64,000 nt of DNA from an uncultured Acidobacteriota bacterium (GTDB taxonomy: Bacteria; Acidobacteriota; UBA6911; CAINFC01), in the NCBI GenBank assembly GCA_903847975.1, contig CAINFC010000005.1:6322-70321 (forward strand). Direction: 5' to 3'. Shown here in pieces: positions 1,507 through 57,000 of this stretch. Position 1 is the first letter of the stretch; every line of letters begins with the position of its first letter. The translations under genes and the position numbers were made by a program. The notes under the pieces were generated by a model, which was given only the letters and a program-made list of their open reading frames with translations, was not told the DNA's origin and ran no database searches.

Positions 1507-1515
1507 GGTGCCGAC

Positions 1516-1974: not shown

Positions 1975-2051
1975 GCCAATAAGCGCTTCTCAATGACAGG
2001 CCGAGAGAAATTTCTGAAAGGTGTGAATTCATTATTACAAGGAGCAGTGCG

Positions 2052-3086: not shown

Positions 3087-3104
3087 GCCAAGCGGAGGGA
3101 ACCG

Positions 3105-3518: not shown

Positions 3519-3572
3519 CTCCCGGCGGGGGCTTCCGCAGAAGGGTCCACTCTCTCTCAATCCGAGGCGATC

Positions 3573-5600: not shown

Positions 5601-5630
5601 TGGGAGAGGGAAGGGATTTCGGATCGGATC

Positions 5631-5712
5631 GGCTTTCATCCGTTCCATCCGCTGTTTCCGTGTAACTTTCTGAAATCAGCGGTTCCCCGGGGAGGTGTCC
5701 TTTTCTTTCCCC
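5631..5712. repeat. Intergenic repeat element, copy C (contains an insertion relative to the other two copies)
   Basis: catccgttccatccgctgtttccgtgtaac...ggtgtccttttctttcc shares the CATCCGC(C/T)GTTTCCGTGTAA core and a GTCCTTTTC tail with copies at about 28121 and 33081. Lies between convergent genes. Confidence 0.5.
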
Positions 5713-5715
5713 TGG

Positions 5716-9730: not shown

Positions 9731-9931
9731 ATTCCGGCTGGAGAGTAGTCGGATCCTGGGGGAATGGGGCTCGACGGCCAGTGGATTTCCAGAACGGTAT
9801 TTCGGACCGAACCAGCGGATGGTGGACCATTACCCCCCCCCACCGGCAGGAGTTCTGCGTAAACCAGATCGATAGCGGCCAAACGATATCCCAAGTTTTC
9901 CGGAATACTATTCGAATCTTGATAGTTGTAT

Positions 9932-9960
9932 TTGACAAGAAACGGTTGATTATGTAAATT
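9932..9960 (+). promoter_or_regulatory. Sigma70-like promoter candidate for the TonB-dependent receptor gene (TTGACA-N17-TAAATT)
   Basis: TTGACA at about 9932-9937. A 17-nt spacer follows, then TAAATT at about 9955-9960, roughly 60 nt upstream of the ATG. AAGGAGAG RBS lies 7 nt before the ATG at 10019. The local region has low GC. Confidence 0.4.
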
Positions 9961-16942: not shown

Positions 16943-17265
16943 ATGAAAACAGGCATTACGAGTGCGACGGGCCGTCCGGCGCACAGGCGTGGGTAAGACT
17001 AATAAAAGATGAAGATGCAAAAAGGAACCCCAAAGGGGTTCCGGATCACAGCCCGGGGTTGCGCCGCAGGCGCTACCCCGGGTAGGCGGATTTGTTTCAC
17101 AATCAGCCCTGAAAGGGCTGCGCAAACACAAACGAAAACCGTTTCGAGTACAGCCTTCAGGCTGCGTGCTGCAAGCAGGTTTCTGGTTGTGCCGCGCAAG
17201 CTACCGCTTGGACTCTGAACAAAGAAGACTTTTTGCGAGAATATCATTAAAGAACAGGGAGGATT

Positions 17266-19515
17266 ATGAGGAAACGGGAAGGGAAATTGTGCGTCGGTCT
17301 GCTGACGCTTTTGCTATTGCCCGGATGGTGTGCCGCCCAATCCGACAGCGGCGAGCTGTTTTCACGCGGCTATTCGGTTCTTCCCGCACCGCAGCGGGTT
17401 CGCCTGCAGGGGGACGACCTCATTCTGGATGCGGCCTGGACCATCGATGCCTCCCGTTTGTCCGCCGGCCACCCGGCCCTGCGATACCTGCGGCGGGACC
17501 TGCATGATTTCTACCGGATCGATTTTTCGCCGGCGGGGCCCAATGCCGGGAAGAAGATCGTTCTGCAGGTTGTCCCGCGGACCGTGCAATCGGAAGCCGG
17601 AGCGGAGATCGATCGCCAGGCCTACCGCCTGACCGCCGCCGCCGACGGGATTCAAATCCTCGGCAACAGCGATCAGGGCCTGTTTTACGGGGTGCAGACC
17701 TTTCTGCAGCTGCTCAAGCCGGATGCTCGGGGCCAGCTGGCCCTGCCCGGTTGTACTATCGAAGACTGGCCGGGTCACGCCTTGCGGTTCCTGCACTGGG
17801 ACACCAAGCACCACCAGAACCGCATGGAGACCGTAAAGCGCTACCTGGACTGGTCGGCGCGCTTCAAGGTGAACCGCATCGGGTTTGAGCTGGAGGATAA
17901 ATTCGAATATCCCTCTCACCCGGTGATCGGGGCGCCGGGGGCTTACACCACCGCGGAGCTGCAGGAGATCGTCGCCTATGGGCTGGAGCGATTCATCGAG
18001 GTGGTTCCGCAGATTCAGGCCCCGGCGCACATGGCCTATGTGTTAAAGCACGAGGAGTTTAAGCACCTGCGGGCCGACAACAGCAACTATCAGTCCTGCA
18101 TGTGCGATCCGGAGGCGGAAAAACTGATCTTCTCGATGTATGAGGACGTGATCCGCGCCACCCCGGGGGTGGATTCGGTATTCGTTTCCACCGATGAAGT
18201 CTATTATGCCGGCATCTGCAACAAGTGTACGCGGCCTTACAACCCGCAAAACCGCAGCCTGCAGTGGGTCGAATTCGTAAACAAGGCGCATGCTTTTCTT
18301 AGCGGCAGGAATCGCCGGATGCTGGCCTGGGTGGAATTTCCCTTCCGGATCGAGCATCTGGGCATGCTGCCCAAAGGACTCATCAACGGCATCATGTCCC
18401 GATTTAACCCGGAGGTCAAAGCCCAGATGGATCACGGCCTGTTTCATCTGGCTTATACCTCCCTGCAGGGGGAGGAGCTGCTGTTCCCCAATCATTTCCG
18501 GATGTCCAGTCCGAGCAGGGATATTCCCGGACGCCTGGCCGCGGCCGAGGCTCTGATTTCCGTGCAAGCCCGGGCCGCCAGGCCGCTGGGGGTTTTTGGC
18601 GCGGCCTGGGACGACTCCGGACTGCACGACGAGACCTTCTGGCTGGGCTGGGCCACCGTGGCGCAATACGGGTGGAAGCCGGGAGCGGCGCCGGTCGAGC
18701 AGACGGCCGCCGATTTCATGAATATCTATTACGGGCATTCCGCGGTCGACATGATCGCCATTTATATGGACATGCAGCGTCAGGCCCGATTTTTTGAGGA
18801 AACCTGGGATCGTGTCATTTCCCGCGTCCGGAAGCCGGGTTACGGCAGTTCGAACCGGATCGGGCCTACCAACCGCTACGATCGTACGCTTCCGGCCCCG
18901 GCCTTGCCTCAGCCGGTTGGACTGGATTTCCAGCCTGTCTATGGAGACCCGTACCAGGAGCGGATCCGGCAGGCTCGGGCCATGGCCACGGATTGCGAGC
19001 AGCTCTGCTATCGCCTCGCCCAGGCCATGTCGCAGGTACCTCGCAACCGCTACAGCCTGGAGGTTTTTCAGTCTCTGACCTGGCTGGTGCGTCACCAGAT
19101 CCGCCTGGTGATGGGGATGGGCTTCCTGGAAGAAAAGCTGAAGAGTGCCCGGGCCGCCACGCAGGAAAAGAATCCGGAAAAGGCAGCCGGCCTTTTGCAG
19201 GAAGCCCGGCAGCATGCCGCCCTGCTGGTCGGGGAGCGCAAGAGCGTATTTGCCGATCTCCAGCGGGTCTGGGAGAAAAGCCGCTATCCCAAGGGAAGGG
19301 AAGTCAACGGCCGGAAATTTCTTCATGTGATGGACGACGTCAAGGATCATTGGGCAGACCGCCGCCCGGACCTTTCCTACATGATCGCCCCGGAAGAGAG
19401 CATCGGTCTGGAAAAGTGGAGTCAGGATCTGGCGGGGATCCTGCGCGTCTTTCGGGAGCAAAACAAGCTGCCGGCGTTGCCCTCCTCTTCCGATGAGCCG
19501 GTCGATGAACCCTAG
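17266..19515 (+). CDS. Glycoside hydrolase family 20-like (beta-N-acetylhexosaminidase-like) secreted enzyme
   Basis: Signal peptide CVGLLTLLLLPGWCAAQ. IEDWPGHALRFLHWDTKHH resembles GH20 I.D.PRF..RG.M.D..RHF. QIQAPAHMAYVLKH resembles GH20 E(I/V)D.PGH. STDEVYY resembles GH20 H.GGDE. Confidence 0.55.
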   Translation: MRKREGKLCVGLLTLLLLPGWCAAQSDSGELFSRGYSVLPAPQRVRLQGDDLILDAAWTIDASRLSAGHPALRYLRRDLHDFYRIDFSPAGPNAGKKIVLQVVPRTVQSEAGAEIDRQAYRLTAAADGIQILGNSDQGLFYGVQTFLQLLKPDARGQLALPGCTIEDWPGHALRFLHWDTKHHQNRMETVKRYLDWSARFKVNRIGFELEDKFEYPSHPVIGAPGAYTTAELQEIVAYGLERFIEVVPQIQAPAHMAYVLKHEEFKHLRADNSNYQSCMCDPEAEKLIFSMYEDVIRATPGVDSVFVSTDEVYYAGICNKCTRPYNPQNRSLQWVEFVNKAHAFLSGRNRRMLAWVEFPFRIEHLGMLPKGLINGIMSRFNPEVKAQMDHGLFHLAYTSLQGEELLFPNHFRMSSPSRDIPGRLAAAEALISVQARAARPLGVFGAAWDDSGLHDETFWLGWATVAQYGWKPGAAPVEQTAADFMNIYYGHSAVDMIAIYMDMQRQARFFEETWDRVISRVRKPGYGSSNRIGPTNRYDRTLPAPALPQPVGLDFQPVYGDPYQERIRQARAMATDCEQLCYRLAQAMSQVPRNRYSLEVFQSLTWLVRHQIRLVMGMGFLEEKLKSARAATQEKNPEKAAGLLQEARQHAALLVGERKSVFADLQRVWEKSRYPKGREVNGRKFLHVMDDVKDHWADRRPDLSYMIAPEESIGLEKWSQDLAGILRVFREQNKLPALPSSSDEPVDEP

Positions 19516-19654
19516 CCGGAGCGGGGGAGTTTTTCTCCGGAAGGGAGCGGCCGTCGCCGCATAGGGCATGACGAACGGCCGCCATGGCCGTCATGGCTGT
19601 CAAGGGTTCCGTCTCCCTGCCATTTACGGCAACAGGAACTGGCAAAGGAGCTAT

Positions 19655-21895
19655 ATGCCGAAATTTTTCAGCGCCGTCATTATTTTGGTGTTTTGGTTCT
19701 CCGCATGGGCGGGAATGGCTTCCGAGGGGTTCGTCAATGACCTGAGGTCCATGGGATACAGCCTGATTCCGGCAGCCAGGGAAGTCCGGCTGACCGGCCG
19801 TGAAATCGGCATCGATGCAACCTGGGGCATCGATCCGCAGGTGGACCCCGGAGAGATCTCGGTCCGATGGCTTAAAGAGGGGGCCATGGAACTGCACCGC
19901 CTCTCGTTGGCAGGGAGCGGGGCCGGGCGGATCGTTCTCCGGCTCTCCCCGGGAGCCGTCGGGTCCGCCCCGCCGACGGTATCGGAGCAGGCATATCTGC
20001 TCAAGATCGCTCCGCATCGGATCGAAATCGTCGGGAACGGCAGCCCGGGTCTGTTTTACGGGGTGCAAAGCCTGCTGCAACTGATTCGATCCCGCGGCGC
20101 CGGGAGCCTGCTTTTGCCTGAGGCCGAGGTGACGGACTGGCCGGCCCTGCCGCTGCGTTTTATTCACTGGGATACCAAGCACCATCAGGACCGGCCGGAG
20201 ACCCTGAGGCGCTTTATCCGCTGGGCGGGCCTGTTCAAGGTAAACGCCATCGGGTTCGAGATCGAAGACAAATACGAATTTCCCCGCCATCCGGTGATCG
20301 GGGCGCCGGGAGCCTTTACCAGGGCCGAGATGCAGGACCTTACCCGGTTTGCGCTGGAGCGCCACATTCAGCTCATCCCCCAGGTCCAGGCCCCGGCGCA
20401 CATGGCCTACGTGTTGAAGCATGAGGAGTTCAAGCACCTCCGGGCCGATCGCAGCAATTACCAGGCCTGCATGTGCGACGAGGAGGCGATGGCCCTCATT
20501 CAGGATATCTACCAGGATATGATCGATGCCACCCCCGGGGTACAATACTTTCATGCCTCCACGGATGAAGTGTATTACGCCGGGATCAGCGAAAAATGCC
20601 GGGAGAAGCGCCCCTATAATCCCAAAAACCGCAGCCTGACCTGGGTGGAGTACGTCAATCGCATGCACCGCTGGCTGCAGGAGCGGGGCCGCACCATGCT
20701 CTGCTGGGTGGAATACCCGCTTCTGGAAGAGCATCTCCGGCAGCTGCCCCGCGGGTTGATCAACGGGATCGGCGGACCGGTTCGCGGAGCCGCATGGAAG
20801 CTGGGGCTGCGCGATGCCGGGGTCCCTTCGCTCATCTACAGCTCCCTGCAGGGCTCGGAGCTTCTTTTCCCCAACTATTTCTCCTCCCGTTTTCAGGACG
20901 ACGGCCGGCCGGTATCCGGCAACCTGGGAAAAGCTAGCCAGGCAGTCGCCGACTCTTTGGGCAAAACGCCGAACGAGCATATCGGCACCTATGCCGCGGC
21001 ATGGGATGACTCCGGACTGCATAATGAACTTTTTTGGCTGGGGTGGGCGGTCATGAGCCAGTACGGATGGTCGCCCGCCGGGCCTCGGGTCGAGCAGGTG
21101 ACCGCCGACTTCATGGATGTGTTTTACGGGCCGGGAAATCAGGACATGATCGAAGTGTACCGGACGTTGATGGAAGGGGCCCGCTTCTACGAATCGAGCC
21201 TGGACCGTGTCCCCGCCGTCCGGCTCAAACCCACTTACGGCAGCTGGGCCGGACCGGGCAGGGACACCACCCGGATCGATTTAAGGATCGAGCCTCCGCC
21301 GCTGCCTTTCGCTTACGATGAGACCCTGGTTGCGGATCGCACCTTCTCGCGGCGCTATGCCCCGGTTCTGGCCGAAATGCCGGGGGTTCGGCTGCGGTTG
21401 GAGCAGGCCATCGGTCTGCTGCAGGGGAAGCTGGGTTCGGTAGCGCGCAACCGATACAACCTGGAGGTGCTCCTCTCCGTGGCCTGTTTCGAACATCATT
21501 ACACCGGGCTCCTGGCCGCTTTGCTGGAAGTGGAGGAACTGCTGCTCCGCGCCGCCGATGAGCAAAAGCAGGAGCGGCATCGGGATGTCGTTTCCCTGCT
21601 TGCCCAGGCGCATGGCCGGGTGCAGGCATCTCTGGCCGAGCGCAATGCCATGTGGGACGCCTTGCGGCGGGTCTGGGAAAAAAGCCGATACCCGAAAGGC
21701 CAGTCGGTCGGCGGTCGGAACTTTGTTCACGTTCTCGACGACCTGAAAGACCACCGGGCCGACCGCCGGGTCGGGTTGGAGTATATGCTGGAGCCGCTGG
21801 AAAACATCGGGCTGAAGGAATGGAATGAAGGGCTGGAGAAATTCCTGCGGACCTACGCGAAAAGCCGTGAAATCGAGGTGCCGGCGTTGAAATGA
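19655..21895 (+). CDS. Glycoside hydrolase family 20-like enzyme, tandem paralog of the upstream gene
   Basis: Same motif series as the upstream gene (TDWPALPLRFIHWDTKHHQDR, QVQAPAHMAYVLKHEEFKHLRAD, STDEVYYAGI). Start placed at ATG 19655 (MPKFFSAVIILVFWFSAWA, signal-like), preceded by an AAAGGAG RBS. Confidence 0.55.
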   Translation: MPKFFSAVIILVFWFSAWAGMASEGFVNDLRSMGYSLIPAAREVRLTGREIGIDATWGIDPQVDPGEISVRWLKEGAMELHRLSLAGSGAGRIVLRLSPGAVGSAPPTVSEQAYLLKIAPHRIEIVGNGSPGLFYGVQSLLQLIRSRGAGSLLLPEAEVTDWPALPLRFIHWDTKHHQDRPETLRRFIRWAGLFKVNAIGFEIEDKYEFPRHPVIGAPGAFTRAEMQDLTRFALERHIQLIPQVQAPAHMAYVLKHEEFKHLRADRSNYQACMCDEEAMALIQDIYQDMIDATPGVQYFHASTDEVYYAGISEKCREKRPYNPKNRSLTWVEYVNRMHRWLQERGRTMLCWVEYPLLEEHLRQLPRGLINGIGGPVRGAAWKLGLRDAGVPSLIYSSLQGSELLFPNYFSSRFQDDGRPVSGNLGKASQAVADSLGKTPNEHIGTYAAAWDDSGLHNELFWLGWAVMSQYGWSPAGPRVEQVTADFMDVFYGPGNQDMIEVYRTLMEGARFYESSLDRVPAVRLKPTYGSWAGPGRDTTRIDLRIEPPPLPFAYDETLVADRTFSRRYAPVLAEMPGVRLRLEQAIGLLQGKLGSVARNRYNLEVLLSVACFEHHYTGLLAALLEVEELLLRAADEQKQERHRDVVSLLAQAHGRVQASLAERNAMWDALRRVWEKSRYPKGQSVGGRNFVHVLDDLKDHRADRRVGLEYMLEPLENIGLKEWNEGLEKFLRTYAKSREIEVPALK

Positions 21896-28094: not shown

Positions 28095-28120
28095 CCGTCT
28101 GCTGCTTCCGACGGCTGCTG

Positions 28121-28240
28121 TCATCCGTAACATCCGCCGTTTCTTCGCTACCGGAAAAGTGGATGTCCTTTTCCGCCTTTTCCTTTTCCGCCTTTGGAAA
28201 AGTGGATGTCCTTTTCCCGCTTCCTTTTCCCGCTTAATGC
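28121..28240. repeat. Intergenic repeat element, copy A, with internal tandem duplication of a 45-nt hairpin unit
   Basis: catccgtaacatccgccgtttc..ccGGAAAAGtggatgtcCTTTTCCgccttttccttttccgcc, then a second copy tttGGAAAAGtggatgtcCTTTTCCcgcttccttttcccgctt. Each unit holds a 7-bp hairpin GGAAAAG/CTTTTCC. Lies between convergent genes. Confidence 0.55.
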
Positions 28241-29382
28241 AAACCCATGGCGCGGAGCGCATCCGGTAAGGGAAGGATCCAGATATTATCTTCCTTTTGC
28301 GGGTGTCGACCGCGGTAAATGACTATTTTTTCGATTTTCTTATAGTACTTATCGATGTGCCGCAGGGCCCTGAGATCGCCGTCACTAATACAATCGGCAG
28401 CTTTACATTCAATGGCAAATTTGGTTCCTGCTACCTTGACGATAAAATCCACTTCCATTCCGCCGCGGGTCCTGAAATTGTGCATGGAGAATTCCATGCC
28501 GGACGCCAGGGCTGAGTTGACAATCTGGGAATAGATCAGATGCTCGAACAGAAATCCTTCCCGTTCTCTTCCCACCTCAAAGCTGCCTCGCAAGGCATTA
28601 AGAACGCCCAAATCGAAAAAATAGAGTCTTGGATGTTGGATCAGATCCACGGCTTCTTCGTCCAGATCGGGGTCATTCTTACAGCGGGCAGCGATGAGGG
28701 TATCTTCCAGGATTTCGATATGCCGAACGGCTGACTGGCGCGGAATTCTGGATCGCTTAGCCATTTTGGAGATGTCCAGATAGTGACCCGCATTCATGGC
28801 GGCCACATAGAGAAAGCGGAGAAACCCATCGATTTGCCGGACCAGAGCTTCGGCCATGATCTCTTCCTTGAGGTAATAATTCGAATAGGTCTGCAGCAGA
28901 AGCTTCTTTTCTTCGATTTTAGGAAGAGTCAAAACACCGGGCAGACATCCAAAGCGCATGGCCTGTTCTTCGTTCCAATCCGGTCCGATCTCTTTGATGC
29001 AAAGGGCGGACATGTGAAAGGAAAAAATGCGCCCTGGTAAGAGATTCGCTTTTCCCCGTCGCAGCTTTCGGGCACTCGATCCTGTCAGGTAAAATTTCAA
29101 ACGGGGGTGATGATCTATTAAATGCTGGATGGTGTTGGTCAAACGGGGAATTCGTTGAATCTCATCTACGAATATGGTACCGGCCCGGGTAGACTCAACC
29201 CGACGAACAAGCTCATTGAGCTCCATCTGGAAAAGAAAATACTCGGATTCGTTAGCTAAATCGATTTCCAGATCCGGCTTTAAAGTCCGAATCAAAGTGG
29301 ACTTTCCCACCTGGCGCGGACCCAGAAGCAGGATACTTCGACTCGATTGAGCCAATGTCGATCCAATCAATCTGTTATACAT
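28234..29382 (-). CDS. AAA+ ATPase of the DUF4143 (ATPase_2 plus C-terminal nuclease-fold-like domain) family
   Basis: 382 aa. Walker A LLLGPRQVGKST. Walker B IFVDEIQ. C-terminal region typical of this widespread orphan ATPase family. Flanked by an AT-rich promoter island. Confidence 0.7.
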   Translation of the reverse strand: MYNRLIGSTLAQSSRSILLLGPRQVGKSTLIRTLKPDLEIDLANESEYFLFQMELNELVRRVESTRAGTIFVDEIQRIPRLTNTIQHLIDHHPRLKFYLTGSSARKLRRGKANLLPGRIFSFHMSALCIKEIGPDWNEEQAMRFGCLPGVLTLPKIEEKKLLLQTYSNYYLKEEIMAEALVRQIDGFLRFLYVAAMNAGHYLDISKMAKRSRIPRQSAVRHIEILEDTLIAARCKNDPDLDEEAVDLIQHPRLYFFDLGVLNALRGSFEVGREREGFLFEHLIYSQIVNSALASGMEFSMHNFRTRGGMEVDFIVKVAGTKFAIECKAADCISDGDLRALRHIDKYYKKIEKIVIYRGRHPQKEDNIWILPLPDALRAMGLH

Positions 29383-29389
29383 GCGGTTA

Positions 29390-29418
29390 TATTTACATAT
29401 ATTTTAACCACTTATCAA
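29390..29418 (-). promoter_or_regulatory. Sigma70-like promoter (TTGATA-N17-TAAATA) driving a leaderless or near-leaderless transcript of the AAA ATPase gene
   Basis: Minus strand reads TTGATAagtggttaaaatatatgTAAATAtaaccgcATG. The -10 element ends 7 nt before the start codon. No room for an SD. Lies within a 60-nt AT-rich island in an otherwise 60%+ GC window. Confidence 0.4.
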
Positions 29419-29444
29419 TAAAAATAAATCTTTTTTCCCCTATT

Positions 29445-30689
29445 CTAGGGAATGAAGAAGAACAAATGGCCTCCGCGATCGCTTTCGCCCATGAAAATGG
29501 TGCCGTCCGCGGCCGTGGCCATGGCGTCGAATTGATGGGCCCGCCGGGCATAATACGGAGATCGGTCCACCTCGATGCTGCCCATGATTTCAAAGGTGGA
29601 GGAGGCAGGATCGTATCGGAAAAAGGTGTTTACCCCGAACCGTTCTCCCCCCAGGCCGAACAGATCTCCGTTTCGGCCAAGAGTCAAACCGCGGATGCGC
29701 GGTTCCACCAATGGTTTTCCCAGGTTTTCCAGATTCTGAGAAGCGGGATGGAAGCGGAAGAGGTAGCCATCCGAGGTTCCGCCGTAGATCACTTCGCCGC
29801 TGACCACCCATGCTTCGATCACCCGAATGCCTGTCCCGGGAATTGCCGCTTCGAGGGTTTGGACCTGCTGCGTCTGCGGACAGTAGCGCAGGATTCTTCC
29901 TTCGTCGCCGGAAGCGTAAACGCAACCGTTCCGGTCGACGGCCAGGTTCCGGGGCAGGCTTCGCAGGGTTCGTATGTCGGGTCCGCCGAACAGGATTTCC
30001 CGGAAAATGGTACCCAGATCCTTGATGGCCTTATTTTTCGCTTCGTAAAGGAAAAAATGTCCATGGGGGTAGGAGATGCCGTACAGGACCTCCCGTTCGG
30101 GGTCCATCGCCAGGCAGTAAATGCCGTCGCCTGGAACGGGGATCCCCAGGTCCTCTACTTTTGCCGGCTTGTCGCCTTGCCACGCCTGCCCTGGAGGAGC
30201 AGGTTCATAGCGGTACAGGTGACCCCCGGCATAGCCCCGATACCGGTTTTCAACTTGCTGCCATAGGTCCTCGGATACCCAGTTCAACCCTCCTCCGGAG
30301 CGCCTGGCAATCGGAAAAGGCTGAATGACGTTCTGGCCCCCGCCCAGGAAGAGGCTGCCGTCCCTTCCTGCCGCCATGCTGTGATGTACGCCCTCGCAGC
30401 CGGGCAGATATCCGAGGGGTTTGACCTGGTCGGTCTTCGGTGAGAAAACAAAGAGGTAAGAGCGGAAGCCGCTGGTGGCCCCGTAGACCTGCCCGTCGGG
30501 AGTGGCGGTCAGAGAAGTGATATAGCTGCCGTCTGCCGGAATCTGACTGAAATGAAGATACCCCAGATCCCTGTATCCCAGCCTTTGCAAGGGTAAGCGC
30601 GGCTGAGCTCCCGGGATGGCCGGGTGGCAGGCCAGAACGACCAGCAACAGGATCATCTTGCGTATTGCGGCTAAAGTGTTGGCCTTCAT
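29445..30689 (-). CDS. Secreted beta-propeller protein of unknown function
   Basis: 414 aa. Signal peptide MKANTLAAIRKMILLLVVLACHPAIPGAQ. Repeated (Y/F)xxGxxG..L(Y/F)R(Y/F) blades. Paralogous to the next gene. Confidence 0.55.
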   Translation of the reverse strand: MKANTLAAIRKMILLLVVLACHPAIPGAQPRLPLQRLGYRDLGYLHFSQIPADGSYITSLTATPDGQVYGATSGFRSYLFVFSPKTDQVKPLGYLPGCEGVHHSMAAGRDGSLFLGGGQNVIQPFPIARRSGGGLNWVSEDLWQQVENRYRGYAGGHLYRYEPAPPGQAWQGDKPAKVEDLGIPVPGDGIYCLAMDPEREVLYGISYPHGHFFLYEAKNKAIKDLGTIFREILFGGPDIRTLRSLPRNLAVDRNGCVYASGDEGRILRYCPQTQQVQTLEAAIPGTGIRVIEAWVVSGEVIYGGTSDGYLFRFHPASQNLENLGKPLVEPRIRGLTLGRNGDLFGLGGERFGVNTFFRYDPASSTFEIMGSIEVDRSPYYARRAHQFDAMATAADGTIFMGESDRGGHLFFFIP

Positions 30690-32008
30690 TTTTCTATCCT
30701 CAGTTTGGCGGGCTCGACGATGATCAGCCGGAGAGCAAACGGCAATTTACCCTTCATCTTGCCTGCCGCCGCGTTAGGGTCCTTCTCTTCCACGGCCCCG
30801 AAGAAGTAGAGGGTTCCATCCGGACCGCAGGCGGCAGCATTGGTCCCCAGAACTCGCAACCGGTTTTTTTCATCGACCAGTTTTCCGAAATCCCGCCGCT
30901 GACCGTCGGCCGGATTGAATGAAATCAGGTAAGAGGCCATATCCTCAACCGTTCCTTCCGAGCCGGAGTAATCGAAGGCCGCGCTGCCCGGCGCGTAGTA
31001 AATCAGATTGTCGTTGCTGAGGGTCATGGAGAGCGTGGCGTAGCCCAGGTCGTGCCTGCCCGCCAGGTGAAGCGGGGTAAGCTGCGCCAGTTCCCGGATT
31101 TCTCCATACCTTCCCTGGCGCGGATTGAAGCGGAAAAGGAAGCTGGCGCCCCCTTCCACGCCATAGATGACCTGGTCGCGCGGGCTCCACTGCGCGACCC
31201 TCCAGATATCCTTGCGGTCCAGCTTGGGCCGGACCGGATCGCCGGGCCATTGGAAGGGATCATGAGGAAGGGTGATCGGCAAATCGATCAGGCGGTTGGC
31301 GGCGGCATCGTATTTGAAGAGAAGGTGCCGCTCGAAGCTGCCGTAGCAGTTTCCTTCATGGTCGGTGACAATGGTCCGGCACACGTCCCAGTCGTTCACC
31401 CGGCCGGCATCGACGGTGGTCCGTGTCTGGATGTCGAAGATATAAAAATGGCCATTGAATGCCGTGCCGTAAAGGCGGTGCCGGACCGCATCGTAGGCCA
31501 GTCCGTAAAGGTCGGAGTTGCCCGGAGCGACCAGGCCCAGGTCCCGGACCTCGTCCCGGGCCGGGTTGTAAAGCCACCAATGTCCTCCGCTCCAGGAGCG
31601 GGGATCGATGTTCCAGGGCCCGGAGCCCTGGTTGCCGGTGCCGAAGTAGATCAAGCCATCCTTGTCCTCCACGAAACGGGTGTGAATTTTGGCCTGAATC
31701 CTGATCCCTTTCGCTTTTTCTCCGGCCAGCTCGGACATGTCGGCCAGGTGCCGTATCGCACCCTCTTTGGGATTGTACTGGTAGAAGTGAGCTTCCGCTC
31801 CGTGAGCCTGGGCGCCGATGTAGACCATTCCATTTCCGGCGGCGTAGAGCGCCGACCACATGCCGTCTTCCTTGAAGCCGCCGGGCAGAGGCAGGGTTCG
31901 GCAATCGGCAGCGCTCAGATTGCTAAATAAAAAGGCCCAGGCGGCCATGGCCCGGATGGCACGAACAGCAGATCGCAAGATAACTCCTTTCCCGGAAAAA
32001 CGGGACAT
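30686..32008 (-). CDS. Secreted beta-propeller protein, paralog of 29445-30689
   Basis: Shares GHWWLYNP/GHLYRYEP, LYGTAFNGHFYIFD/LYGISYPHGHFFLYE and FRFNP/FRFHP blocks with its neighbour. Start set at the ATG (MSRFSGKG) at 32008 to avoid overlap with the LamG gene. An internal M (MAAWAFLFSN) at 31948 is an alternative start. Confidence 0.5.
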   Translation of the reverse strand: MSRFSGKGVILRSAVRAIRAMAAWAFLFSNLSAADCRTLPLPGGFKEDGMWSALYAAGNGMVYIGAQAHGAEAHFYQYNPKEGAIRHLADMSELAGEKAKGIRIQAKIHTRFVEDKDGLIYFGTGNQGSGPWNIDPRSWSGGHWWLYNPARDEVRDLGLVAPGNSDLYGLAYDAVRHRLYGTAFNGHFYIFDIQTRTTVDAGRVNDWDVCRTIVTDHEGNCYGSFERHLLFKYDAAANRLIDLPITLPHDPFQWPGDPVRPKLDRKDIWRVAQWSPRDQVIYGVEGGASFLFRFNPRQGRYGEIRELAQLTPLHLAGRHDLGYATLSMTLSNDNLIYYAPGSAAFDYSGSEGTVEDMASYLISFNPADGQRRDFGKLVDEKNRLRVLGTNAAACGPDGTLYFFGAVEEKDPNAAAGKMKGKLPFALRLIIVEPAKLRIEK

Positions 32009-32027
32009 CACAAAGCTTCTGCCCCGG

Positions 32028-32870
32028 TTACTCCGGCTTCTCGAGGAATTGATTCGGATGCAGTACCGCATGGGAAATCCGGATTTTTCGGATGGCTCCT
32101 TTGAACCAGAACACCCGGTTGAGTCGACAGCCGATGGAGGTTTGCCCGCCGCCAACCGCTGTGTACTCCACTTCTCCGGACATCTCCTCCACTCCGTCGA
32201 CGTAATGGCGCATGGTGTGCCCGTCATAGGTCAGGGCGGCATGGTACCATTTTCCCAGCGGATGGAGGGTCGCTTTCGATTGAAGGGTTTTTTCGGATTT
32301 TCCCGATTTGATAAAGGTGTCGAGAAACCATTCATTCCGTTCGTTCAGGCGTGTTTCCATCAGCACACGGTTTTCCTCGCTGGATTGCATGTGCAGGAAA
32401 CGCTGCGCCTGGCTGCCGCCCGCATCGGGGCGGAAAACTGCTTCCACGGTGAAGCTTTGGGTGCCGGCGAGCGGATTGGCGTCCAGGATCAAACCGTCGT
32501 CCTGCCCGTCAAAAGCCAGGGCCGAGTCATGGAGCGCTTCGATGATCCGGGGGGTTCCGAGAACCGTCGGCCGGCCGCCGCCGATTTCGTTCAGATTGTC
32601 CAGATCCCAGACGACCTGCCTGACCTTCCCGGGCCCGGCAGAGAACGCCCCATGCTTGTGGCCTGCCGGGGCAGGCCCCGGATCCTTTACGAAAAGCAGC
32701 TGGTTTGCCGGCCTTCGCCACTGCGTCTCCGGTTCCTCGGAATCGGTCGATGCCGGCAAGCAGGCTATCACCACCGCTGCCATGATCAGCCGGAGCGACA
32801 GGTGCAGCGTATGCCGGGAGGGCGCTCTCTTCTCTCCCCTGAGTCGAGGGTAAAAATCTCGTGCGGTCAT
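32028..32870 (-). CDS. LamG/concanavalin-A-like lectin domain protein
   Basis: ALAFDGQDDGLILDANP..FTVEAVFRPDAGG..QRFLHMQS...WYHAALTYDG..MRHYVDGVEE are LamG/ConA-like beta-sandwich hallmarks. An alternative start at 32783 (MAAVVIACLPAS) would give a short signal peptide. Confidence 0.55.
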   Translation of the reverse strand: MTARDFYPRLRGEKRAPSRHTLHLSLRLIMAAVVIACLPASTDSEEPETQWRRPANQLLFVKDPGPAPAGHKHGAFSAGPGKVRQVVWDLDNLNEIGGGRPTVLGTPRIIEALHDSALAFDGQDDGLILDANPLAGTQSFTVEAVFRPDAGGSQAQRFLHMQSSEENRVLMETRLNERNEWFLDTFIKSGKSEKTLQSKATLHPLGKWYHAALTYDGHTMRHYVDGVEEMSGEVEYTAVGGGQTSIGCRLNRVFWFKGAIRKIRISHAVLHPNQFLEKPE

Positions 32871-33080
32871 ATTCTTCCGCCTGCCGGTTCTCCGCCAGGG
32901 ATACCATCATGCCGTCGCGATTCCGGTACTTCGATACAGGAATGTTTTCCGGGTCGGCTTTTGATTTGGCTCATGGAGTTCCCGACACGGGCCGTCATCA
33001 TTTAACCCCTTTTTGCGGAAAAATGCGAATGTCCTTCGAAACAATCACAAAGCGGATGAGATGGATAAAACGGATCCGCT

Positions 33081-33162
33081 GTGATCCGTACCATCCGCCG
33101 TTTCCGTGTAATCTGCAAAATGGATGTCCTTTTCTCTCTGTCTCCTTTTCTCTCTGTCCGGT
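33081..33162. repeat. Intergenic repeat element, copy B
   Basis: gatccgtaccatccgccgtttccgtgtaatctgcaaaatggatgtccttttctctctgtctccttttctctctgtcc aligns with copy A over about 75 nt in the same orientation. Lies in the divergent region between the LamG and PD40 genes. Confidence 0.55.
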
Positions 33163-33349
33163 GGGGCCACCCCCTCCGCCCGCCATGCTCCCGGAAAGGT
33201 TCTGACCATAAATGACCACATTTGTCCGTATACTACTATGTGGGAATCGTACATGATTGTAGATAGACCGAAGCGCCGATCCCGGGAAACCGTTTTTCCG
33301 TGAAGAGCCGAAAAACCTTCATCCAACAAATCAGGAAAGGGAAGCAACT

Positions 33350-34567: not shown

Positions 34568-34774
34568 CGGTTGCCGCCTGACGGCCCTCGGCCGGCATCC
34601 GGGGAAACGGGCGGCAGCGGCCAAAGGCTGGCGGAAAGTACCAGCCTGGCTATTGCCGCCCGACAGGCGAGGGGGAATCGGTATTTCTTCTTGACTTCGG
34701 CCCATCTGCGCTCTATGTCGTTTTTCGTTCCGGAGGCGATCCCGATGGCCTGACCTTTTGCCCGGCTGGCCAGG

Positions 34775-35426
34775 ATGCACCTGCGCGCCCTCTGGGCTCC
34801 CGTCCTCCTCGCTCTGGCCTGGTTTGCGCTTCAGGCCGGCGTCTGTGCGGGAACGCCGGCCTACGCAGGTGCCCCAGCCCCTTTCGCTGACTCAAAATTT
34901 AAGATGTGCGACTTTTTCGTCTGGCCCCAGGGCAACGACTCCTGGAACGGGAAGCCCGCTGTGCCCAGCGCCGACCGAACCACCGGACCCTTCGCCACAC
35001 TCTGATGCGCCCGCCTCGCCGTGCGCGTCCTGAAGAGCGGCCAGTACCGCGACCACTTCGTCCTGATTCGCGGCGGTGAATACCGGCTCGCCGCCACCGG
35101 GGTCTTTACGCCCGCCGATGGCCACTACGACTCGTTTGCAGTCCATTACATGGCCAACCCCGGCGAGGAGCCGGCCCTCTGCTCGGATCTCGATGTGACC
35201 GGCGGGCAACCTGTCGCCGGTGTGCCCGGCCTGGTCGGCGTCGGCCGCGGTGACTTCCGGCTCCAGCCCGGGTCGGCCGCCGAAAAAGTTCGGCTTCCGC
35301 GAAATCGACGTGCGTCCGTGCGTGCTTACCTCCGATTTTTCCCGCCGCTTCGCCGGGGCGGCCCGCGAGGATCTCGGCGCCGACTACGATTCCTTTGTCC
35401 GGCTCGACGATCCCGAGGTGCCGTGA
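34775..35426 (+). pseudogene. Degraded remnant of a secreted right-handed beta-helix (pectate-lyase-fold) protein gene: in-frame TGA at 35003-35005, probable +1 frameshift near 35285, internal deletion
   Basis: Signal peptide MHLRALWAPVLLALAWFALQAGVCAG. QGNDSWNGKPAVPSADRTTGPFATL is followed by TGA, then the same frame continues CARLAVRVLKSGQYRDHFVLIRGGEYRL...MANPGEEPAL. This matches the usual beta-helix N-terminus (PFATL..AR.AVR.LK...V.LRGGTYRL...AYPGE.P.L). The frame then decays. A +1 frame carries ...GADYDSFVRLDDPEVP up to a stop at 35426. Only about 217 codons in total. Confidence 0.4.
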
Positions 35427-36064
35427 ACCGGCCTGTTCCATCCGACCCTCACGGATGTTTAGTGGCTCCGCCCGAGCGGCAGAAAATGTGAGTTACTCGA
35501 TGAGCGGACAGCATCCATGAGGAAGGGGGAAAGTCCCTAAAAGCGATAAAGGGATCTTGCCTGTAATTGTGCCTTTTTGAAGAGCCCTGAAGGGGCGAAA
35601 TGATTCCAGCCCGGGGGGAAGCCCCGGGAAGCGATATTGTATTGCATGTCGATCCCTGTAATGGCGGCCTAATACAAACGAGCAATTGGATTTAGGTCGC
35701 CCCCACAGGGCTCTGATTTCCGAATGTCATCGTTCCCGGGGTTTCGCCCCGGGCTGACGATGTGGGAGGCTTTCAGCCTCCTTCAAGACTTTTTAGCCCT
35801 TCATCATCCATCTTGAGAGCCCGGTGTTCTCCCGGTCGTTGGCGGCAGAAGGTTCCCAGTCGATGGCATTTCGGCATGCCGGGATCGCCGCCGGTGCACA
35901 CTGGGTTTCAGACTGGGGATATAATTATTGCGGTGGACAGACACCGGTAGACAGCCCAATGACCCTGGCTCAGGCTTTTAACAAAAGAGAGATAAAGGAT
36001 ATCCGGATTTTCCTGTGATTATGGGAGTTCTTCGTCCGCTTCTTTCTTGTTCGGAAAAACAGGT

Positions 36065-50931: not shown

Positions 50932-51059
50932 ACCCGGGTGCCGGCAGCAGGAGTTCCAATCGAATTACCAGAGAGGTCCTGCGGAATGGAATCGGGTGGC
51001 AGGATCAGACGGTCACAGAATAGGAAACAGTATTGAAAGCAGCTGTGGAGACCAAGACG

Positions 51060-54000
51060 ATGAAACAGATTCGTTTCTTAGGGATTTGGATCGGTATTTG
51101 CTGTGCCTTGATTGCCCCGGGGTACGGGGAGGGGCCCAGTATCGATATGGCCGCGGAATATACTCTGTCACTTGGGCGTTGGGAACTGCCGCTGCAGGCC
51201 TCGGGCGGATCCGGAACCGGCTACGTCTGGAGCGTGGTCACCGGCTCGCTCCCTTCCGGTCTGGCTGTTCGGACCGATGTGCCCGGCTGGTTCCCTGCGG
51301 GGACCACTGCAGGGGTGATCGGGGTGGCCACGACCACCAGCACCACCACGGCAACGATTCAGGTGAAAGACAGCCTGAATGCCACCACCACCAAAACCAT
51401 CAGTTTTACTGTCGTCGCCCTTAATTCTGCGAGCAATTGGGAGCTGCCGGATGCTTCGGTCGGTGTAACCTACAGCTTCACGTTAGGGGTTGTCGGGGCT
51501 ACGTCCTCGGTGACCCGGTCGCTGGTCTCGGGAAACTCGCTTCCGCCCGGCCTCAGCCTTAACTCCACCAGCGGGGAGATATACGGTACTCCATCCACGG
51601 CCGGGACCTACGACTTCAATATTCAGTTCACCCAGGGAGCCTATTCCCTGCAGCGCACATTCCGGATTTTTGTGTCGAACCTGAATATATCCACGGGTGT
51701 GATCCTCCCGACGGCCACCGTCGGTGCCGGGTACAGCCAATCGATTACCGTATCGGGCGGCACGGCCCCCTATACATTTTCCTCCACCTGCTGTCTCCCG
51801 CAGACACTTTCCTTGAGCAGCGGAGGGGTTATTTCCGGGACGCCCGGCTGGCAGGATTTCAGCAGTCTGAATCTGTCGGTGGCCGATTCCGCAGGTGCGA
51901 CGGCCCGCAAGAAATTTGGCCTGACCGTTACCGGGACTCCCAGCCAGCTTCCCGGCATCAACCATCCACCCCTGCTCTCCGATGCCGAACTGGGGAGCTA
52001 TTATTCCGGCTCCATGGGCGGATTTCCCGGCAAGCCTTCTTCCACCTGGGAAGTGGCCAGCGGGTCGGCTTTGCCTGCCGGCTTCAGTGTGCTGGACCCC
52101 TCGCAGGATCCCTCGCATACCAATCCGGGACAGTTCAATTTCGGGGGAACCTCCTTACAGGTGGGAACCGCCGGCTTTACTGTCCAGTGTACGGATGGCT
52201 CGACACCGCCGGCGGTCACACGGCGGAGCTATTCCCTTCGCGTTTCGGAAATGGCCGTGGACAGCTTGCCGGGCGCCATGTTTAACGTCGCCTACAGCAG
52301 GCAGATTCGCGTGCTGGGTGGCACGGCCCCCTACGCCTTTACGATTTTCAAGGGAACCTACCCCTCCGGCATGACTATGAGTTCCAGCGGACTTCTGTCC
52401 GGTACTCCCCAGGAAACCGGATGGTTCGACCCGTGGGTGCAGATAACGGATTTCAACGGGAAGATATGGCTGCGGAGTCTGGGCGTGTATGTCAGCGCCG
52501 GTGCAACCAATATCTATATCAGGGCCGGGAGTCCGCTTCCCGATGCTTTCGTGAATCAGAGCTACAGCTTTCCTTTTACAGCCAGCGGCGGAAGCGCCTC
52601 TTATAACTGGACGATCCCGTCCGGCAGCCTTCCTGCCTGCCTGAGCCTGCTGAGCGGCGGCTCGCTGCCCTCCGGTTCGCCCGCCGGCTCTGCCGTGCTG
52701 ACCGGCACCTGCACCTCACCCGCCCAATATAGCTTTCTGCTTCGGGCGACCGACAGCTCCAACTCCGCCAATTTTGCCCAGCAGTTATTCCGGCTGCAGG
52801 TTACGCCGATTTACTATACCGGGCCCGGGCTGCTGCCCTACGGAAATGTCTCCACGGCCTTGAGCCGAAGCCTTTCGGTCGGCGGTGCCACCGGGACCGT
52901 CAACTACATCCTCCACCCGGACGACCTTCTGCCCCCGGGAATTGCTCTTTCGGGCAGCGGAATTCTTTCCGGGACACCCAGCTCCAGCGGGCGGTTCTGG
53001 TTCCGCGTCGTGGCTACGGACAGCCTCGGCAGTTCCGCCACCTTCTGGGTCAGCATCGACATTTACCCGGCCGGAGGCTACCCGCCCCTTCTGATCAATA
53101 CGTCTTCCAGTCAGGTTTATCAGCTGGGGCGGGTGCAACAGGCGCTTTCTGCCGAAGGCGGCTCCGGCGGATACATCTGGTCGATCGATCCGGGCGGTGG
53201 CTCTCTGCCGCCCGGGCTGAAAATCCGCACGGATATTCCTTCCGGATGGGCGTCCGGAACCACGGCGGGCATCATCGGTGTGGCCACCACCATCGGCACC
53301 TCTCTGGCGACTATCCGGGTCACGGACAGCGTCGGCAACACCACCACCCAGGCCTTCTATTTCAATGTCCTGGCGGTCAACAGCACCAGCAACTGGCAAT
53401 TGCCGGACGGATCGCTGGGCGTAGCCTACAGCTACATTCTGGGGGTGACCGGGAATACGGGTTCTGTGACCCGGGCGCTGCCCTCGGGGAACTCTCTTCC
53501 CCCGGGGCTCAGCCTGAATTCCGCCACCGGTGAGATATCCGGTACGCCGACCACGGCCGGTACCTACAATTTCAATGTGCAGTTCACCCAGGGGTCCTTC
53601 AGTTTTCAGCGCGGCTTTCAGATCACGGTGTCCAAGCTCCATATCTCCACGGCAGCGGAATTGCCAACGGGGACCGTCCATGCCGCCTACAATCAAACCG
53701 TCTCGGTAAGCGGCGGCACGCCGCCTTATACCTTTTCCACCGGCTGCTGCTGGCCGGGAGGTCTCTCCTTCAGCAGCAGCGGAGTGATCTCCGGAACGCC
53801 GAACGGCCAGACTTTCAACAATTTCCCGATTTATGTCACCGATTCGTCAGGAGCGACCGCCCGCAAGCAGTTCGCCATGACCATTACCGGATCGCCCGCG
53901 CAGCTGCCGGGCATCAACTATCCTTCCTTTTTTCAGGATGCAGAGCTGGGCTCTTATTATGCCGCCGCGGCGGCGGGATTCCCCGGGAAGCCGCCCTCCA

Positions 54001-57000
54001 CCTGGTCGCTGGCTTCCGGCTCCTCTTTGCCGGCCGGGTTTGCCGTGCTGACTCCCTCTCAATATACGTGGAACACATCGCCGGGGCAGTTCAATTTTGC
54101 CGGTACCGGAACGCAGGTTGGAAATTACAGTATCACCATGCAATGGACGGACAGCTCCGCGCCGGCGGCTTCCACCAGCCGGACCTTTGCGCTGCGGGTT
54201 TCCCCCCTGGCGGTCGACGGTCTGCCGAATGCGACCCTGGAAACTTCCTACAGCCGACAGATTCGCGTGCTGGGAGGGGATGCCCCTTATACCTTCACGC
54301 TCAAGCAGGGGGCCTTCCCGAACGGGCTGACCATGAGCTCTTCGGGGTTGCTGAGCGGCACGCCGCTGGAGACCGGCGGCTTCTCCCCCCTGGTCCTGGT
54401 GACCGATTCCAGCGGAAATTCCTGGCAGAGGAGCATGTATCTCTTTGTCAGCAACGGAACCGACGGCATCAACATCAACAACGGCAGTCCGCTTTCCAAT
54501 GCCCTGGTCAGCCAGAGCTACAGTAACACCCTCACGGCCGGCGGCGGCAGCGGGGCCTTTACCTGGACTCTGATTTCCGGCAGCCTGCCGCCGGGCATGA
54601 ACCTTTTAAGCGGAGCGACGCTGCCTGCCGGCGCTCCGGCCGGCTCAGCGGTGCTAAGCGGAACCTGCCCCACCGCCGGGCAATACAGCTTTACGCTGCG
54701 GGCTGCGGACAGTGCCAACGCCAGCGCCTTTGCCCAGCGGTTTTTCCGGCTGCAGGTCACGCCGGTCTCCTATAGCGGACCCGGGTCGCTGACTTTCGGC
54801 AACCTGTCTTCCTTTCTGTCGCGGCCTCTTTCCGTCAACGGTGCCATGGGAGCGGTGACCTACGCGGTGCATCCGGACGACATGCTGCCCCCGGGCCTGT
54901 CCCTGGCCGGCAGCGGCGTCATTTCCGGGACTCCCTCTTCCATCGGCCGGTTCTGGTTCCGGATCGTGGCCACCGATTCCGCCGGGTATTCCACGATCCT
55001 CAATCTCAATATCGACATTTACCCGGTCGGCGGATATCCTCCAATGCAAATTACTACCGGCGCGATGCAGAGCTATGGCCTGGGACGGGTGGAAGCCGCT
55101 CTCTCCGCCACCGGCGGAACCGGAACCGGCTATGTATGGACCTTGGATTCCGGGTCGCTTCCCGCCGGTTTGAAAATCCGGACCGATGTGCCCAACTGGT
55201 TTTCATCCGGCACTACCGCCGGAATCATTGGTGTGGCCACGACGGTCGGATCTTCCACGGCTACCATACGGGTGACCGACAGCGTGGGGAACAGTACGAC
55301 TTTAACGATGAATTTTTCGGTCTTTGCCCTGATGCCCACACGACGGTGGGATCTGACAGACGGTTCCGTCGGAGTGCCCTACGATTATCCTCTGGGAGTC
55401 ACCGGAAACGATGGCAGCGTCACTTTCAGCGTTGCCAGCGGGTCTTTGCCGCCGGGCCTCAACCTGAACGGACTGACCGGGCGCATCACCGGGACCCCGA
55501 CCACAGCGGGCTATTACAATTTCTACCTGAAATATTCCCAGACGAGCTTCAACCTGACCCGCTCCTACCAGATATATATATCGCCAATGGCCATCACCAC
55601 TCCGTCGCAGCTGCCGGCCGGGACCGTCTGGACATCCTACAGCCAGTCGGTCGGCGTTACGGGCGGCACCTCCCCTTACAATTACACCTTCGGCTGCTGC
55701 CTGCCCGGAGGCATTTCCGGCGATTCCGCCGGACTGCTCTCCGGAACGCCCGGTTCCGAAGCGAACAGCTCCTTCCGGGTAACCATCGGCGATTCCTCGA
55801 TTTATAAGGTGCGTCGAAATTTCAACCTGCGCGTCAATCACACACCGAGCGGATTGCCGGCGATCTCCACGGACAATCTCACCGGAGGGGAAGATTTATT
55901 TATAGGAGAGGCTCGCTGGGCTGCCGCCTATAGCTATGCCGGCAAGCCCACCGGCAGCTGGTCCCTGGCAACCGGTTCGACTTTACCGCCGGGCTTTGAA
56001 ATCCTGGATCCCGCCAGCTATCAAAATACCAACGAGAGCGAGATGCCCGTCGGCCAGCTGGTCATCGCGGGCAGCGGAACCCAGGCCGGCAGCTACCCGG
56101 TGACCTTGAGGTACACGGATGCTTCCGTGCCCCCGGTTACTACCAGCCGTTCGTATACGCTTCGAGTCTCCGCCTTGAATTCGGATGATCTACCCTACGG
56201 CTATTACGGAGTTCCCTATAGCCAGCAGATTCGGGTGCTGGGAGGAGTACCGCCCTATACTTTTGCCATTGTCGATCGGAATTTTCAAAAGGGATTGGCT
56301 ATGAATTCCACGGGCCTGGTTTCGGGAATACCTGCAGAGACCGGAAATTACAATCCCCTGATTCTGGTGACCGACAGTGCGGGCAATACCCTTCGGCGCA
56401 GCATTTATCTCTTCATCCACAGCGGCCCTACCGATCTCAATTTCAACAACGCCGGGATCAACAAGAGCGGCAATCCCCTGGCAAACGGGTTTGTCGGGTC
56501 CAGCTTCAACGTAAACTTGACCGCCTCGGGGGGGCCTGCTTCCTATACCTGGAGCGTGGAGTCCGGGGCTTTGCCTCCGGGCCTGACGCTGCTGAGCGGA
56601 ATCAATCTGCCGTCGGGTTCTCCGGCCGGATCCGCAGTGCTCACCGGGGTGCCGACGCTTGCCGGCATCTACGATTTCTCGCTGCGGGTGACCGATAGCA
56701 GCAACTCCGCTAACTTCGGGGTCCGCCTCTTCCGGATCCAGATCGGTCCCTTCCAGCTTTCCATCTCTACCCTTTTGCCCTGGACCAATGCAGGAAGCTC
56801 TTTCAGCCAGACGCTGGCAGTGACCGGTGCCAGCGGAACCGTTACCTGGGCCCTGAAATATAACAGTCTGCTGCCGCCGGGGCTGTCGCTCGCTCCGGAC
56901 GGGACGCTTGCGGGCTCTCCGACTACCACGGGCAGGTATTCCTTCACCCTGGTCGGAACCGACACCAACGGCATGTTCCGTACGTTCACCTTTACTCTCG

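Follow-up and report, generated by a model that had tools for sequence, protein, structure and literature searches.

Modular intergenic repeats in an uncultured Acidobacteriota bacterium, related to the ends of a MITE-like element

A stretch of 64,000 nucleotides (nt) from the genome of an uncultured Acidobacteriota bacterium (assembly GCA_903847975.1, contig CAINFC010000005.1, positions 6,322 to 70,321; in its full length referred to as the window) carries in three of its gene spacers a related short sequence, two copies of which enclose a 4.8-kb block of minus-strand genes. What is this element, and does its position on both sides of the block mark the latter as a mobile unit? An initial annotation had offered a repeat of the type of repetitive extragenic palindromes (REP) or miniature inverted-repeat transposable elements (MITE), a protein-binding site, or the footprint of a cassette insertion or recombination. 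We consider it moderately probable that the copies belong to a lineage-restricted, modular and non-coding intergenic repeat family resembling REP, BOX and MITE sequences, and that they have decayed. The copies are situated at ~5620–5712, 28105–28235 and 33066–33158 (copies 1, 2 and 3), all on the plus strand and in intergenic regions, which agrees with the places first annotated except that the similarity begins ~11–16 nt upstream of the starts originally set. The core pattern CATCCGCYGTTTCYKYGYWA matches the window only at 5646, 28131 and 33092, and since merely 0.02 matches are expected by chance, the three copies constitute a real family. In pairwise comparisons with a repeat finder, positions 5625–5665 and 33071–33111 are 88% identical over 41 nt, and positions 28117–28173 and 33078–33134 are 81% identical over 57 nt. 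Profile searches (nhmmer) with the whole element, the core and the tail detected no additional copy, whichever strand of the window was searched. Each copy can be described in terms of two units, termed A and B, with the following positions in the window.

5620–5666, plus strand: A unit (core) of copy 1, CGGATCGGATCGGCTTTCATCCGTTCCATCCGCTGTTTCCGTGTAAC; detected by core pattern, repeat finder and nhmmer.
5691–5712, plus strand: degenerate B-like tail of copy 1, GGAGGTGTCCTTTTCTTTCCCC, without tandem duplication; weak match to the B profile at 5695–5707.
28105–28151, plus strand: A unit of copy 2, CTTCCGACGGCTGCTGTCATCCGTAACATCCGCCGTTTCTTCGCTAC, starting 10 nt past the stop codon of the GH123-like gene and diverged at its 3′ end; detected by core pattern, repeat finder and nhmmer.
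28153–28195, plus strand: first B unit of copy 2, GGAAAAGTGGATG then a perfect tandem duplication of 15 nt (TCCTTTTCCGCCTTT twice); hairpin GGAAAAG/CTTTTCC, then a T-rich run.
28196–28234, plus strand: second B unit of copy 2, GGAAAAGTGGATG then a perfect tandem duplication of 13 nt (TCCTTTTCCCGCT twice); final base within the DUF4143 stop codon.
33036–33076, minus strand: weak inverted partial A unit adjoining copy 3, GCGGATGAGATGGATAAAACGGATC (reverse complement of ATCCG boxes); detected by nhmmer and as inverted repeats.
33066–33112, plus strand: A unit of copy 3, TAAAACGGATCCGCTGTGATCCGTACCATCCGCCGTTTCCGTGTAAT; detected by core pattern, repeat finder and nhmmer, and identical in the independent contig L040.
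33114–33158, plus strand: B unit of copy 3, TGCAAAATGGATG then a perfect tandem duplication of 16 nt (TCCTTTTCTCTCTGTC twice); without a good hairpin.

The A unit is ~45 nt long and has the general form ATCCGCTGTG-ATCCGTACC-ATCCGCCGTTTCCGTGTAA, in which boxes of the type ATCCG(Y) precede GTTTCCGYG. In copy 3 it reads ATCCGCTGTG / ATCCGTACC / ATCCGCCG, corresponding to three ATCCG(Y) boxes 9–10 nt apart, and continues into TTTCCGTGTAA. The conserved core described at the outset is present in all three copies, but its end has diverged in copy 2 (TTCGCTA versus CGTGTAA). An inverted partial A unit lies directly upstream of copy 3, so that the core region there is an imperfect palindrome; the minus-strand nhmmer matches concerned (33080–33050) are weak, with window-wide E values of 0.18–0.6.

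The spacers containing the copies are of different kinds. Copy 1 occupies the 115 nt (5601–5715) between the convergent genes for an S9 peptidase (stop at 5600) and an SDR protein (stop at 5716), copy 2 the spacer 28095–28233 between the convergent GH123-like and DUF4143 genes, and copy 3 a spacer of 479 nt (32871–33349) between the divergent LamG (minus) and PD40 (plus) genes. Copies 1 and 2 are thereby placed directly 3′ of plus-strand stop codons. The initial description of all copies as strictly intergenic applies to the spacers but is not exact to the base, as the last tail unit of copy 2 overlaps the DUF4143 stop codon by one nucleotide (28234). Proteins identical to those of the window are encoded on ENA contigs of up to 88.7 kb and on short Logan contigs. 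Three Logan contigs (L040, L092 and L093) derive from the same species as the window (99.95–99.98% identity) and carry identical elements, with copy 3 unchanged in L040; the additional 6.4 kb of same-species DNA in the Logan contigs contain no extra copy. Contig L093, which corresponds to window positions 1398–5667, stops at 5667 right behind the A unit of copy 1, an end that would fit an assembly broken by a repeat with more copies elsewhere in the genome.

The B unit is composed of AAARTGGATG and a pyrimidine tract that starts with TCCTTTTC and is rich in this motif. The conserved tail originally attributed to the element, TGGATGTCCTTTTC, is found exactly at 28160, 28203 and 33121, but is degenerate in copy 1 (GGAGGTGTCCTTTTC), where it follows the core after 38 nt rather than 21 nt. 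One B unit is present in copy 3 (33114–33158), two are arranged in tandem in copy 2 (28153–28195 and 28196–28234), and copy 1 has a degenerate remnant (5691–5712). The internal tandem duplication reported for copy 2 is real; the repeat finder aligned a 27-nt tail module at 28153–28179 with its counterpart at 28196–28222 at an offset of 43 nt and 93% identity. As the second B unit at 28.1 kb has no A unit of its own, B is a separable module, present zero to two times. The pyrimidine run of copy 1, judging from its partial occurrence in the corresponding spacer of a relative (see below), may be ancestral flanking sequence rather than a part of the element.

The B units are further distinguished by their exact tandem duplications. 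Only four perfect tandem duplications with a period of 10–25 nt exist in the window, and three of them reside in B units, at 28166–28195 (period 15, 2.0 copies), 28209–28234 (period 13, 2.1 copies) and 33127–33158 (period 16, 2.0 copies). All three start at the base right after TGGATG. The duplicated units have TCCTTTTC in common as their first 8 nt and differ beyond it, which implies that the duplications arose independently or were homogenised. As background, ~750–850 kb of unrelated loci contain 4–5 such duplications (~5 per Mb), none of them after GGATG. The unduplicated state is represented by copy 1. The duplications could be due to slippage at the hairpin or the pyrimidine tract, to selection for two TCCTTTTC boxes 13–16 nt apart, or they could be the footprint of a staggered cut. 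The last of these leads to a scenario in which the B unit marks a site-specific DNA-processing activity and the duplications of 13, 15 and 16 nt after TGGATG are footprints of staggered cleavage and fill-in beside a recognition sequence; they might then stem from aborted or reversed integration by an element that makes target duplications of 13–16 bp with a fixed anchor, for which leader-adjacent integration by a casposase or by Cas1 could serve as an analogue. We regard this scenario as very improbable.

Relatives of the A unit were sought in the species-representative genomes of GTDB and in JGI metagenomes with the exact 21-nt core ATCCGTNNCATCCGCYGTTTC as scan pattern. Two intergenic elements on a JGI metagenome contig of 3.3 kb (L067), one after each of two co-oriented genes, are the only real relatives that emerged from these two public collections; the second was missed by the search pattern and found by profile. 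Their right ends align to the A unit of the window, with the invariant columns C-GCT-T-ATCCGT---ATCCG--G-TTC across five sequences. In L067 the A sequence forms one arm of a 41-nt inverted repeat, 76% complementary and with 72 nt between the arms, which encloses a central hairpin and adds up to an element length of ~155 nt. Both arms are 78–83% identical between the two elements, and the inverted-repeat score amounts to 22 versus 4–15 for the other pattern matches. There is thus at least one other organism in which a MITE-like element of ~155 nt ends in the A sequence. The pattern matches in L048/L008, L058, L069 and L075 were judged to be due to chance because their likeness ends at the pattern and inverted partners are lacking. 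Viral contigs gave no match in the pattern scan, and BLAST against plasmid and phage collections revealed no similarity.

A second line of evidence comes from the orthologous spacers of relatives. In a relative with ~68% protein identity (L094, L095 and L096) the gene order hypothetical protein–QueF–S9 peptidase–SDR is conserved, and the S9/SDR spacer comprises 28 nt in L094 and L095 versus 115 nt in the window. The alignment needs a single gap of ~94 nt spanning the A unit, which identifies the element as an indel at this site, and a short pyrimidine run (TCTCTTTCC) is common to both spacers. Presence and absence at an orthologous site, a property by which MITEs are recognized, is in this case a between-species difference, the same-species contigs being identical. 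L095 seemed to have an insertion of 155 nt compared with L094, but this proved to be a run of N in the scaffold. The orthologues of the GH123-like gene (62–66% protein identity; L107–L112) are followed by unrelated genes, none of them with an element, and the loss of synteny with the relatives coincides exactly with the end of that gene, i.e. with the 28.1-kb copy. In three relatives a small convergent gene, which has no counterpart at the window site, comes after the GH123-like gene (8670–9005 in L107, 2477–2602 in L111 and 5143–5517 in L112); it is DUF3795-like in L112 and cysteine-rich when the DNA is read by eye. PD40 homologues outside the window stand in a different, sigma-54-type context. 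In L097 a sigma-54-type promoter (TTGGCATACTGTTTGCT), the only true one seen, is located at 9900–9960 upstream of the PD40 homologue, behind a sensor kinase and a sigma-54 activator, a context of kinase, activator and promoter that the PD40 gene of the window does not have.

Could the element act at the level of RNA, as a stabiliser in the 3′ untranslated region, as a terminator of the upstream plus-strand genes, or as a small RNA whose pyrimidine tail or GGAUGU motif binds mRNAs or a protein such as CsrA? The position of two copies directly behind plus-strand stop codons is consistent with such a role, as are the two B units at 28.1 kb, each of which scores as a terminator-like hairpin ending in a T-rich tail. 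In copy 1 the purine-rich left flank can pair with the pyrimidine tail to give a long stem, better on the plus than on the minus strand (−44.1 versus −36.8 kcal/mol), and in the L067 elements a T-run comes after the central hairpin when read in the direction of the upstream gene. A conserved secondary structure, however, was not obtained: the consensus fold from five sequences reaches only −0.26 kcal/mol with three pairs and without covariation or compensatory change. The folds of the single sequences are unremarkable (z-scores of −0.9 to −2.7), and their pairings vary from copy to copy. The hairpin-containing tail of the first description exists in the two units at 28.1 kb (GGAAAAG/CTTTTCC) but only there; the hairpin is missing from the B unit of copy 3, terminator-like sites are absent from copies 1 and 3, and copy 3 has no upstream plus-strand gene that it could serve. 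Rfam 15 gave no match at gathering level in the window, permissive scans returned nothing relevant at the copies, and neither tRNA nor tmRNA was found. An RNA-level function of the family is in our view unlikely.

Several more specific candidates were dismissed on the same material. A uniform intrinsic terminator was rejected as terminator-like sites do not occur in every copy, and known RNA families, including TwoAYGGAY-like ones, as neither threshold produced an Rfam match. A coding frame SVPSAVSV*, which copies 1 and 3 offer with two apparently synonymous differences, was excluded by a stop directly upstream in copy 3. The small open reading frames (ORFs) beginning M/VDVLF in the B units were likewise not accepted as coding, being not conserved and subject to duplications of 13 and 16 nt, which are not multiples of 3. 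A reading frame common to the copies was not found. Readings as a sigma-54 promoter, an extracytoplasmic function (ECF) sigma factor promoter or parS, considered by eye only, were dropped because the matches were inconsistent or gapped.

Conservation in primary sequence instead of structure would rather suit a cis-acting array, serving as operator, insulator or nucleoid-associated site, in which the ATCCG boxes 9–10 nt apart and the inverted GGATG ~30 nt downstream are bound by a host protein. The box spacing and the distance between CATCC and GGATG (30–31 nt) are equal in copies 2 and 3, and copy 3 resides in a divergent promoter region. At copies 1 and 2, on the other hand, which are located between convergent gene ends, such an array would have no promoter to regulate, and the flanking genes (peptidase/SDR, GH123-like/DUF4143 and LamG/PD40) have no common function. 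ATCCG pentamers are moreover frequent in the whole window, and the site is missing at the orthologous S9/SDR junction of the relative. We therefore consider a host regulatory array distinctly unlikely. If the core is a transposase-binding end, a protein-binding site would follow from it naturally.

The second part of the question concerns the block between copies 2 and 3, which the initial annotation had connected with a cassette insertion or recombination footprint. In this case an excisable or exchangeable cassette of 4.8 kb would be bounded by att-like sites or insertion products, namely the 28.1-kb and 33.1-kb copies. Both copies, which lie on the plus strand, are indeed in direct orientation as first described, one on each side of the block, and the synteny break coincides exactly with the GH123-like 3′ end, the site of the small convergent gene in three relatives. 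The block contains, on the minus strand and over ~4.8 kb, a DUF4143/AAA_14 ATPase gene, two propeller genes and a LamG gene. The DUF4143/AAA_14 gene (28234–29354, minus strand) has a low GC content (0.42–0.52) and matches the PADLOC defence candidate PDC-S01 with an E value of 8e-48. PDC-S01 is a widespread single-gene ATPase-nuclease defence candidate, experimentally unvalidated so far, with many horizontal transfers (PMC12988326), and membership in this horizontally mobile family would fit a cassette.

The internal composition of the block speaks against a cassette. The AT-rich island at 29355–29444 exists, but heads the DUF4143 gene only and not the whole block. The LamG gene and the two propeller genes, the latter paralogues as had been proposed, though distant ones (23% identity, E value 3e-15), form a separate co-oriented group with a GC content of ~0.54–0.65. 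The low GC content and the AT-rich upstream region of its own suggest that the DUF4143 gene was acquired apart from its neighbours; the block is heterogeneous, consisting of the DUF4143 gene and a separate three-gene unit. No integrase, transposase or recombinase is encoded among the window genes, in or near the block, and no direct repeats or target duplication flank the block, with only a weak similarity of pyrimidine runs around the DUF4143 gene. The third copy, 22 kb away, bounds nothing comparable. Integron attC sites bear a resemblance to the copies in being short, imperfectly repeated and equally oriented at the borders of gene units. They differ in that the window has no intI gene and the repeats show neither the R''/L''-L'/R' architecture nor GTTRRRY, and integron cassettes, which are single co-oriented ORFs without promoters, differ from this block of four genes with its own AT-rich upstream region and from a third copy outside any array. 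Spacers of 90 nt or more number roughly a dozen in the window, and with three copies spread over these ~12 sizeable spacers, two neighbouring ones are unremarkable. The bracketing of the 4.8-kb block looks like a coincidence, and we attach hardly any probability to a cassette.

An intergenic repeat of the REP/MITE type, which was among the readings first offered, is accordingly the best supported one: all copies are intergenic and modular, the L067 relatives possess inverted ends, and the element is absent from an orthologous spacer. Comparison with well-known systems specifies this kinship. REP sequences and the mosaic elements built from them (BIME) are repetitive extragenic palindromes of Enterobacteria and Pseudomonas that are mobilised by RAYT transposases (Y1); their characteristic unit is an imperfect palindrome of 20–40 nt headed by GTAG (GT(A/G)G) with a conserved hairpin, and typically their copies are numerous across a genome that also encodes a RAYT. 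The present repeat resembles them in being short, non-coding, often located between convergent genes, assembled as a mosaic of modules and possibly acting as terminator or mRNA stabiliser, and the strictly extragenic location typical of REP/BIME applies to all three window copies and to both L067 copies. It differs by lacking a shared GT(A/G)G-headed palindrome or conserved hairpin, by an apparently low copy number, and by a conserved part that is a ~45-nt stretch with ATCCG boxes in direct repeat. The pneumococcal BOX elements consist of boxA, boxB repeated n times and boxC, and adopt stable folded structures. Their variable tandem number of one module recalls the arrangement of A plus zero to two B units; the likeness is one of build, a relationship in sequence not being expected, and a common structure is not found among the window copies. 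Bacterial MITEs include Correia/NEMIS of Neisseria, RUP of Streptococcus and ERIC. With these the L067 elements share the size of ~155 nt, the non-coding and intergenic nature and the imperfect terminal inverted repeats of 41 nt, to which the between-species presence and absence at the orthologous spacer is added; differences are that neither a target-site duplication nor a parent insertion sequence was identified, and that the window copies keep one end, or a collapsed pair of ends, together with the extra B module. The family has not been previously described.

A number of observations weigh against an origin of this sort. Target-site duplications were detected neither at the window copies nor at those of L067, the flanks of copy 1 showing only a vague similarity of GGGAGAGG to GGGGAGG. 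An autonomous partner or transposase gene with these ends was not encountered either when genome, metagenome and viral collections were scanned with the exact 21-mer and plasmids and phages were searched by BLAST. The pattern scans yielded 39 (GTDB) and 50 (JGI) loci which, with the exception of L067, are nearly all single matches inside long ORFs and display no likeness past the pattern. Within the window a weak inverted partner accompanies copy 3 only and not copies 1 and 2, the density seen is three copies per ~70 kb of this species' DNA, which contain no transposase gene, and the phase-locked exact duplications of the B units are not explained by simple MITE decay. Finally, the pentamers ATCCG/CGGAT number 334 in the whole window, coding regions included, versus ~125 expected under uniform composition (~2.7-fold). 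Because of this over-representation the ATCCG boxes alone carry little weight, and the evidence for the repeat is the long shared sequence.

We propose the following scenario for a decayed mobile repeat. An ancestral element might have spread into gene spacers in trans, by means of a transposase-like protein binding to the A sequence. The A unit, which matches the ~40-nt terminal inverted repeat of the ~155-nt element in the other organism, would derive from the binding end for such a protein and probably still is one, and the B unit would be an accessory module that varies in copy number. In the window, the copies would represent one-ended or collapsed, probably immobile derivatives that persist in spacers where they are harmless. 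At 28.1 kb the hairpin and T-run of the B units may, as a secondary role, also terminate the upstream gene.

The surroundings of the repeat offer a few further observations. The source is described as an uncultured bacterium of freshwater type that possesses a large locus for glycan degradation, and the genes of the window encode glycan-degrading enzymes, sensors and surface proteins. The locus includes members of glycoside hydrolase (GH) families, namely GH2, two GH20, GH28, GH42-like and GH123-like, together with an RGL11-like protein, and sulfatase genes are found just upstream in the same-species contig L092. The two GH20-family genes are tandem paralogues (17266–19515 and 19568–21895) with ~73–74% DNA identity over stretches of 140–300 nt. 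The spacer preceding them (16943–17265) is densely occupied by short GC-rich hairpins (GGAACCCCAAAGGGGTTCC, CAGCCCTGAAAGGGCTG and CAGCCTTCAGGCTG) unrelated to the A/B repeat family. Downstream of the PD40 gene, 1.5 kb of GC-rich DNA (34568–36064; GC content 0.58–0.67) contain no called gene; a sub-threshold match to the Acido-Lenti-1 RNA motif lies in this region on the minus strand (35583–35628; 28.6 bits versus a gathering threshold of 37; E values of 4e-4 locally and 0.017 window-wide). A giant ORF on the plus strand (51033–62987; 3984 amino acids) has many internal repeats, several of them at a spacing of 1956 nt, which make up most direct-repeat families of the window.

For the organism itself the repeat family is a routine point of annotation. 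This small family can break short-read assemblies and mislead the analysis of synteny, and the present case warns that repeats on either side of a group of genes need not signify a cassette when the repeat fills a fair share of the spacers. The repeat would matter more if the A unit is the end of an uncharacterised transposon family common to distant lineages, or if the phase-locked duplications beside TGGATG reflect a specific enzymatic process; should the B units indeed be sites of DNA processing, the family would serve as a landing pad open to repeated use instead of being a passive repeat.

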